Assembly (NCBI GenBank): GCA_049302075.1
Contig: JBAQLS010000025.1
Location: forward strand, 125,378-189,377
Reading direction: 5' to 3'
Source: Carboxydocellales bacterium
GTDB taxonomy: Bacteria > Bacillota > GCA-003054495 > Carboxydocellales > JAJZTU01
DNA: 64,000 bases
A program made the translations under genes and the position numbers. A model generated the notes under the pieces. It was not told the origin of the DNA and ran no database searches. It saw only the letters and a program-made list of their open reading frames with translations. Below, piece by piece: positions 2,061 to 3,200 of this stretch. The stretch's first letter is position 1, and every line of letters begins with the position of its first letter.

Positions 2061-3200
2061 ATGATCGATATTGAACAAAAACAATGCTGAGGTCCAAAGG
2101 AAAGTCTGCCGGTGGCGGAACTAAGCGGGGCTGGATATAGTGATGAAGCTCAACATCATTACTGGGTGGAGGGGTACCTGGATACACCTATTGGCCAGGT
2201 AAGAAGGATAAAAACCACTTTAACAACTCAAGATAAGCAAGATGGCTATAAGGCAAGATGGGGAATAAATCGGTATAATTATACCGTTTCACCGGGGCTC
2301 TACGCGGTGGGTAACCCGGATAATCAAGCACCTATTCTGGTTACTGCTAATTATAAACTAACCTTTGATGCCTTACGTAAGCAGTTAGGTCAGCAAAACT
2401 TATGGCTGATGGTGTTAGATACCAAGGGGATAAATGTTTGGTGTGCTGCCGGCAAAGGTACCTTTGGTACAACGGAACTCATCTCCAGAATTAAAAGCCT
2501 AGGCTTAGACACTGTAGTCACCCATCGCAGAATAATCATACCCCAACTAGGAGCGCCGGGGGTTGCCGGCCATGAGGTATTTAAGCATACCGGCTTTAAG
2601 GTAGTATATGGGCCGGTTAGGGCGGAAGATATTGGGGAATTTTTGGCCAATAACCAGCAGACTACACCGGATATGCGGGTGGTTAAGTTTACTATGGCAG
2701 ATAGGCTCATCCTGACCCCGATGGAAATAGTCCCGGGTCTAAAATTTCTGCTGCTTCCCCTAGCCTTGTTGTTAATGTTAAATTTATTAAACCTGCAAAA
2801 CATTTCTTTATTAAATGCCCTGCAAATTAGTTTGGTTAACTTCCTGCCGTATCTGGGGGCTTTTTTAATGGGAACCTTGTTTACTCCCTTATTATTACCC
2901 TACATCCCGTTTAGATCTTTTGCTCTGAAGGGGTTAGTATTAGGGGTGATTTGGGCAATAGTGTATTTGAAATTTAATGCGTTGTTTTTGTTTCCGGACA
3001 GGCAATTAGTATTAGCGGGGAACACGTTGCTCATGTTGGCTAGCTCATCCTTTCTAGCCCTGAATTTTACCGGTTCCAGTACCTATACCTCTTTGTCCGG
3101 CACACTTAAAGAGACGATAATTACTGTTCCTCTTGCAGCTTTTGCTTCCCTGGTGGGTGTTGGATTGCTAGTAGCAGATAAAATTTTAAGCGTTGGGTAG
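2061..3200 (+). CDS. hgcA: Mercury methylation corrinoid protein HgcA. Proposed start is ATG 2061 with in-frame UGA at 2088-2090; the track ORF starts at GTG 2112.
   Basis: The HgcA cap-helix signature NVWCAAGK is present (..LDTKGINVWCAAGKGTFGT..), with a corrinoid-binding-like domain followed by a multi-TM C-terminal half. A ferredoxin gene follows immediately. GGAGGG (2048-2053) lies 7 nt before ATG 2061, in the same frame as the track ORF. Confidence 0.85.
2103..2122 (+). promoter_or_regulatory. Candidate bacterial SECIS hairpin for the hgcA UGA
   Basis: AGUCUGCC-GGU-GGCGGAACU forms a 6-bp stem (one G.U), a bulged A, then 2 more bp. The apical loop is GGU and starts 21 nt after UGA 2088-2090. 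Confidence 0.4.

Follow-up and report, generated by a model that had tools for sequence, protein, structure and literature searches.

The hgcA and hgcB genes lie side by side on the forward strand of the 64-kb stretch of DNA analysed here (the window). The ORF listed at 2112..3200 belongs to a bona fide hgcA. The window HgcA scores 422 bits against the NCBIfam profile NF040863 (cut-off 275), covering profile positions 1–324 of 325, and the cap-helix motif INVWCAAGKGTFG is present in its translation. Within it, GINVWCAAGKGTFGT corresponds to the HgcA cap-helix signature N(V/I)WCA(A/G)GK with the Co-ligating Cys, and is invariant in the HgcA alignment. The gene that adjoins hgcA downstream encodes the ferredoxin HgcB, the neighbour by which hgcA is recognised. 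Other genes of the window identified in NCBIfam scans include aro/trp operons, glgA, RNase J, helD and ACR3, and the RNase J shares 86% identity with its counterpart in Phosphitispora fastidiosa (Peptococcaceae, Bacillota); the organism is probably a Phosphitispora-like member of the Peptococcaceae.

The region upstream of the listed hgcA ORF displays a second, more distal start in the same frame, as the earlier note had proposed, and direct reading of the sequence confirmed each element of that arrangement. A Shine-Dalgarno sequence, GGAGGG (2048–2053), is located 7 nt 5' of ATG 2061, while GTG 2112, at which the listed ORF begins, is preceded only by AAGGAA, a weak ribosome-binding site. ATG 2061, TGC 2085, TGA 2088 and GTG 2112 all share one frame, and TGA 2088–2090 follows immediately 3' of the Cys codon TGC 2085–2087. 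Translation from ATG 2061 yields MIDIEQKQC, the TGA and GPKESLP before GTG 2112 is reached, 51 bases 3' of the ATG and 22 nt past the UGA; the C9-U10 dyad (2085..2090) thus stands 7 codons upstream of GTG 2112. With an in-frame TAG at 2055–2057, the frame can open no earlier than ATG 2061. Read in this way, the full-length hgcA coding sequence would extend over 2061..3200 on the forward strand and comprise 379 codons and a TAG stop, with Sec as codon 10. Further upstream, a weak promoter-like site, TTGCCC-17-TACAAT (1976..2004, forward strand), matches the consensus at 9 of 12 positions in a consensus scan, and such sites are no more numerous than in shuffled sequence.

The earlier note had also claimed that hgcB shows the same phenomenon, and this holds for the window and for all relatives compared. 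In hgcB (3210..3482, forward strand), which begins at ATG 3210 with MGLKYL as in the relatives, TGA 3423–3425 follows the codons for GVG and the frame continues with TYAIIKGWLTGSEPQCDC to TAA 3480–3482. Reading through this TGA lifts the score against the HgcB profile NF040864 from 107.9 to 130.6 bits (cut-off 99) and widens the profile coverage from positions 1–68 to 1–87 of 93. The UGA occupies the position equivalent to Cys-73, after GVG, and read-through restores a conserved tail, GVG-TGA-TYAI(I/V)KGWLTGSEP.CDC, which is present in 8/8 sequences.

Conservation of the upstream reading frame

The window was compared at the DNA level with seven relatives (L001, L003, L006/L007, L090, L091, L092 and L093); counts out of eight refer to these and the window together. 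In the protein search the closest HgcA relatives are 58–71% identical to the window protein, and the records of all of them are short, at 326–354 residues. All seven display, 5' of the start chosen by the gene caller and in frame with it, a Shine-Dalgarno sequence (GAGG or GGAGG, 7–10 nt before the ATG), an ATG, 9–10 codons, a Cys codon, a TGA and then GP(K/Q)(E/D/N)(S/F/C)LP. The residue preceding the Cys-Sec pair is Gln in the window and Tyr, Ser or Asn in the relatives (QCUGP, YCUGP, SCUGP and NCUGP), and the TGY-TGA dicodon is found in 8/8. The earlier note had named a consistent ortholog start at the equivalent of position 2112, and loss of the upstream frame, as observations that would speak against its proposal. 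None of the seven begins at that position and the upstream frame is kept in every one, as it is in the window. GTG 2112 itself is replaced by GAG in most relatives. The called starts of the relatives are GTG, ATG or TTG codons placed 8 to ~45 codons past the TGA, differ from one another and are non-homologous. As the gene callers choose a different start in each genome, no other initiation site is conserved. Over the 14 codons that follow the TGA, pairwise differences number 66, 76 and 191 at codon positions 1, 2 and 3, respectively, and this excess at third positions is the signature of translated sequence. An in-frame UGA flanked on either side by conserved coding sequence, a mark of selenoprotein genes, is common to the orthologues (8/8).

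The position of the UGA is also informative in homologues that lack it. Whether orthologs carry Cys at this position had been raised in the earlier note, and they do: the C-UGA of the window aligns with the first CC of uninterrupted Cys-form homologues, the UGA corresponding to the second Cys (P0022, P0025, P0053, P0055, P0060, P0043, P0032 and P0084). The more distant homologues P0022, P0025, P0053 (Dethiobacter alkaliphilus), P0055 and P0060 are encoded by uninterrupted ORFs that start with M-x(3-6)-C-C-x-x-x-C-C. An alignment-based scan of GTDB genomes returned 80 HgcA loci, none closer than 53% identity, among which ~45 carry an N-terminal CC, four a C-UGA (L008, L022, L063 and L077) and ~24 neither. 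A scan of genome contigs with a single HgcA protein as query gave no match. Searching metagenomes for the DNA motif TGYTGAGGNCCNAARGANNNTCTNCC recovered one true locus, identical to L003, together with one chance match in a GC-rich contig.

Anaeromonas frigoriresistens D2Q-11, the organism of locus L008, combines a C-UGA in hgcA with a GVG-UGA in hgcB. The RNase J P0143 is 76% identical to that of the window; if it resides on the same contig as the HgcA relative P0012, inheritance of the Sec-type hgcAB within the lineage would be hinted at.

Candidate SECIS hairpins of hgcA and hgcB

A hairpin that may act as a bacterial SECIS follows the UGA of hgcA at 2103..2122 on the forward strand. The structure proposed in the earlier note, AGUCUGCC-GGU-GGCGGAACU with a bulged A, stands as described; the distance between UGA and loop, given there as 21 nt, is 20 nt (2091–2110) as counted here, a difference of counting convention. 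The core of the hairpin consists of 6 bp (2105–2110 with 2114–2119) closed by the GGU triloop 2111–2113, and an extension beyond the bulged A2120 (2103–2104 with 2121–2122) adds two pairs. The 20-nt segment folds with −7.5 kcal/mol (z = −1.96; 7 of 200 shuffles are equally good) and the bare 6-bp hairpin with −6.7 kcal/mol, a value that ~3% of the 1703 TGA triplets of the window match with bSECIS geometry. Folds of 66 and 48 nt are not unusual in relation to shuffles (z = 0.28 and −0.43, respectively). Taken alone, the hgcA hairpin is therefore unusual at only about the 3–5% level, which is weak evidence, and its weight rests on conservation.

This conservation extends to every sequence compared. 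In 8/8 sequences every position of the 6-bp core is paired (100% of cells), and the loop measures 3 nt and is separated from the UGA by an identical 20 nt. Its sequence is GGU, UGA or GGA, so that a G always falls within the first two loop positions. The pair 2108/2116 is GC in three sequences, AU in three and GU in two, a synonymous change of the Leu codon going together with an Ala/Val replacement on the opposite arm. A covariation test on the hgcA hairpin found this kind of evidence at one pair only in the eight sequences and did not exceed its shuffle controls. Part of the stem conservation could derive from the conserved peptide LP(E/V)(A/V)(D/E) encoded by the same nucleotides. A possible lower SECIS stem surrounds the hairpin at 2091..2132 (forward strand), where the 48-nt minimum free energy structure pairs GGUCC 2091–2095 with GGGCU 2128–2132. 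The RNAalifold consensus keeps four outer pairs, three of them in 7–8 of the 8 sequences, between the Gly-Pro codons after the UGA and GGGGC ~40 nt downstream; this outer helix could instead reflect conserved Gly-Pro and Gly-Ala codons.

The bacterial SECIS model described in the earlier note, with the loop 16–37 nt from the UGA and a G in the first two loop nucleotides, agrees with the bSECISearch criteria (Zhang & Gladyshev 2005) as summarised in PMC13188914, where a loop of 3–9 nt, a stem of 4–16 bp and an MFE <= −7.5 kcal/mol are also listed. The hgcA hairpin conforms to this geometry through its GGU loop, its 20-nt spacing and its stem of 6–8 bp. Its energy is borderline, the threshold being reached only marginally by the 20-nt segment and not by the bare stem, and binding of SelB is predicted. 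According to Haft, Gram-positives are expected to carry a GGU triloop on a stem of 7 bp, and the window hairpin is counted here as alike. Similarly, the hgcA of A. frigoriresistens carries, 22 nt past its own C-UGA, a stem of 7 bp that ends in a GGA triloop. The hairpin of hgcB is the stronger of the two energetically: GGCUCAC-AGGUA-GUGAGCC (3448..3466, forward strand), whose loop lies 29 nt past the UGA, folds with −11.3 kcal/mol, and a 48-nt fold there has z = −2.61. It displays the same architecture, and is essentially invariant, in 8/8 sequences. Rfam contains no family that matches the hgcA or hgcB site, either at the gathering threshold over the whole window or at E <= 10 over 1950–3550.

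Decoding of the UGA codons

The observations are best explained if hgcA is a selenoprotein gene whose true start is ATG 2061 and whose UGA 2088 specifies Sec, a reading to which we give a probability of roughly 0.88 on the comparative sequence evidence. Ribosomes would start at ATG 2061 by means of GGAGGG and synthesise M-I-D-I-E-Q-K-Q-C. At UGA 2088 the hairpin 2103–2122 would act as a bacterial SECIS and recruit SelB-GTP-Sec-tRNA(Sec), as expected from the standard bacterial mechanism. Sec would then be inserted in place of termination and translation would enter the annotated ORF, so that the finished HgcA has 379 residues and contains a Cys9-Sec10 dyad. This pair is probably carried on a short, flexible N-terminal tail ahead of the corrinoid-binding domain, in keeping with the AlphaFold2 model of the Cys-form homologue P0022, in which residues 1–21, containing the CC motifs, have pLDDT < 50 and the folded domain begins at about residue 31. 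By analogy with the parallel CC motifs, and given the soft-metal chemistry of thiolates and selenolates, a probable role of the Cys9-Sec10 dyad is to capture Hg(II), or methylmercury as the product, and to deliver it to the methyl-corrinoid site or take it over from there. The Sec of HgcB and the C-x-C at its C-terminus may take part, together with the HgcA dyad, in this hand-over of Hg. When produced in E. coli, the annotated form of the ND132 HgcA methylates Hg; according to Haft & Gwadz (bioRxiv 10.1101/2022.07.06.499078), this form does not include the CU extension. If the annotated form indeed lacks it, catalysis in vitro does not strictly depend on the dyad.

The machinery for Sec decoding was searched for within the window. 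No tRNA gene, tRNA-Sec included, was detected in the 64 kb by ARAGORN and Rfam, and NCBIfam scans of 40 long window ORFs identified no selA, selB or selD. From the two conserved UGA/hairpin sites we infer that the organism is Sec-competent. Screening the window for additional ORFs joined across a TGA revealed no further convincing selenoprotein candidate. A variant genetic code was considered and rejected, since TGA is in use as an ordinary stop in 7 of the 52 long ORFs of the window.

Other interpretations of the in-frame UGA are possible and were weighed against Sec insertion. The nine codons MIDIEQKQC-stop might constitute an independent leader peptide or uORF, terminated at the UGA, with HgcA initiated further downstream, for instance at GTG 2112. 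The mechanical listing of GTG 2112 as an ORF start, the moderate conservation of MI(D/N)xNQxxC and the in vitro activity of the annotated ND132 protein, which according to Haft & Gwadz is devoid of the extension, are compatible with this arrangement. It is nevertheless very improbable, since the reading frame stays conserved beyond the UGA: the third-position bias described above runs through the 7–20 codons that separate the TGA from any candidate start. In addition, GTG 2112 sits inside the hairpin loop and is GAG in most relatives, neither a downstream start nor a downstream Shine-Dalgarno sequence is conserved, the start chosen by the callers changes with every relative, and the Cys-form homologues are translated straight through the UGA position. 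Sec decoding in bacteria generally competes with termination. A mixed mode can thus be envisaged in which Sec is inserted only when selenium is available, termination being otherwise followed by re-initiation nearby, so that full-length and truncated HgcA both exist. The GTG located 22 nt past the UGA in the window and the activity of the annotated ND132 HgcA, again taken to be without the extension as stated by Haft & Gwadz, fit such a scheme. It remains quite unlikely, as the re-initiation codon is not conserved among the relatives and GTG 2112 has only a weak RBS; re-initiation at GTG 2112 was rejected as a conserved feature for the former reason.

Two further explanations have even lower probability. 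The bare presence of an in-frame stop, and nothing else, would suggest that hgcA is a pseudogene, inactivated by mutation, or that the gene was wrongly sequenced or assembled. This is effectively refuted by conservation: the same TGA occupies the same codon in seven assemblies made independently of one another and from different samples, hgcB contains a parallel TGA of its own, and both genes are otherwise intact, with scores that exceed the curated cut-offs. That the UGA is read by a route other than Sec, for example by near-cognate insertion of Cys or Trp in an organism devoid of Sec machinery, would agree with the failure to find that machinery within the 64-kb window. It is exceedingly improbable in view of the use of TGA as an ordinary stop in 7/52 long ORFs, of the SECIS-type hairpins that both sites display at a model-conforming distance, of the alignment of both UGA codons with Cys in homologues, which is a signature of Sec, and of the presence of Sec machinery in all 20 species surveyed by Haft & Gwadz.

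Relation to known HgcA and HgcB selenoproteins

The principle that HgcA can be a CU selenoprotein is already published, and the window both confirms it and widens its range. Haft & Gwadz (bioRxiv 10.1101/2022.07.06.499078; J Bacteriol 2023, 205:e00259-22) described 20 hgcA genes, including those of the founding ND132 and of Geobacter, in all of which an upstream extension crosses a single UGA and thereby yields the CU motif PCUGP; Sec machinery is present in 20/20 species of that survey, and Sec occurs at residue 73 of HgcB in 17 of 266 sequences (6.4%). A 2026 review lists NF040863 with the motif 'CU' and NF040864 with the motif 'GVGU'. The window HgcA belongs to the same family as these proteins and similarly carries Cys-Sec-Gly-Pro in an extension upstream of the predicted start. 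As in the published cases, databases record the proteins of the window lineage in truncated form and the Cys-form relatives carry packed CC motifs.

Several features set the lineage of the window apart. PCUGP was called perfectly conserved in the 20 published cases, whereas the window displays QCUGP, keeping CUGP but not the leading Pro; the supplement of Haft & Gwadz itself shows the variants TCUGP and ICUGP. The motif is mostly preceded by 30–50 residues in the published HgcA, while in the window only nine residues precede Sec-10. The K(E/D)xLP that follows CUGP is specific to the window and its relatives when compared with the published proteins. In the published alignment, Firmicute-type sequences appear only as Cys forms; in contrast, the window lineage displays the Sec form. 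Haft & Gwadz describe no conserved SECIS for hgcA, in contrast to the hairpin conserved in this lineage. For HgcB, the position and motif of the published selenoproteins (GVGU, Sec-73; NF040864) are as in the window, where GVG-UGA-TYAII is found. In contrast to the 17/266 of the published HgcB set, Sec-HgcB occurs here in 8/8 and is always paired with Sec-HgcA. The model HgcB of ND132 has Cys-73 where the lineage has Sec, and the CC usual at the HgcB C-terminus is C-D-C in the window lineage. SaoL, SaoB and SaoC of the SAO system and the MerT-type CU proteins likewise contain a Cys-Sec dipeptide, for which binding of a heavy metal or an organometallic ligand is presumed as it is for HgcA, but their folds and gene neighbourhoods are unrelated to those of HgcA. 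NCBIfam scans identified no SAO genes among the 40 long window ORFs.

The value of the locus lies mainly in the correction of annotation and in the extension of a known motif to a new lineage. The published HgcA CU motif is extended to a Firmicute lineage in which Sec would be residue 10 and HgcB would also be a Sec protein, and a conserved candidate SECIS hairpin can now be described for each of hgcA and hgcB. In the protein collection searched, the members of the lineage are all recorded short, with 326–362 residues for HgcA and 71–74 for HgcB, and these truncated records include a GenBank MAG protein named HgcA (P0011). Surveys of hgcAB, structural models and heterologous-expression constructs based on such records omit two probable metal-binding selenocysteines. 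A more far-reaching proposal, which we regard as rather doubtful, is that both methylase subunits are obligate selenoproteins in this Peptococcaceae lineage, selenium gating their synthesis at the level of translation and Hg methylation being strictly Se-dependent. As no fallback start is conserved after the HgcA UGA, selenium supply would, under that proposal, gate the synthesis of both subunits. If both are indeed Sec-dependent, a dedicated Se-Hg-Se hand-off from the N-terminal arm of HgcA to HgcB might exist, and if true this would link the long-known environmental antagonism between Se and Hg directly to the enzyme.

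Probable selenocysteine site and termini of hgcB

The hgcB region of the window (3201-3482) carries an in-frame TGA at 3423-3425, at the position equivalent to Cys73 of the model HgcB, and a strong hairpin is found at 3448-3466. Reading through this codon restores the QCDC motif at the HgcB C-terminus. The true start of the gene is likely ATG 3210 rather than GTG 3201, with an MGLKYL N-terminus that relatives share. At the other end of the gene, the closest relative (locus L001, 1686-1750) displays a distinct hgcB terminus, in which TGA takes the place of the last Cys codon (HCD-TGA), whereas in all others HCDC is followed by the stop. 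Either L001 has lost its final Cys, or the protein carries a second Sec at its C-terminus.

Genes accompanying hgcAB

Convergent with hgcB, the minus strand at 3527-4060 encodes a 177-aa protein built from three LysM-like repeats with a Cys-containing linker after each. The molybdopterin oxidoreductase at 4942-6981 (N-terminus MEIKRSVCPYDCPDACGL) shows kinship with Fdh-alpha/DMSO reductases, although it scored under every curated cut-off. Its gene has no in-frame TGA, and the protein displays a Cys at a site where formate dehydrogenases may have Sec. The same 64 kb also contains cobA, encoding a corrinoid adenosyltransferase (32760-33356), and an ACR3 arsenite efflux gene (53613-54686); no ArsR-type regulator was seen adjoining hgcAB in the window. 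At 29325-31323, a 438-aa ORF partially matches the anti-phage ATPase PtuA (NF041760, 204 bits, below the cut-off) and is overlapped and followed by a 250-aa ORF with no family match; the two may form a Septu-like defence pair. In two relatives, hgcAB is flanked by a SelO-family (PF02696) gene (L090, 1-1151; L093, 3960-3981). SelO is an AMPylase and not part of the Sec machinery.

In-frame TGAs in other HgcA loci

In-frame TGAs outside a CU context were observed in the HgcA N-terminal regions of a Mobilitalea MAG (L044, CGE-TGA-P) and a Syntrophales MAG (L065, T-TGA-ATSC), and may be additional Sec contexts or errors. In Anaeromonas frigoriresistens D2Q-11 (L008; NZ_WSFT01000036.1, 2351-2460) the HgcA site reads KSC-TGA-STD, with a 7-bp stem capped by a GGA triloop 22 nt after the TGA, while its HgcB reads GVG-TGA. 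The corresponding database protein (P0077) is truncated and annotated as 'acetyl-CoA synthase subunit gamma'. As a cultured isolate, A. frigoriresistens D2Q-11 is a possible experimental model.
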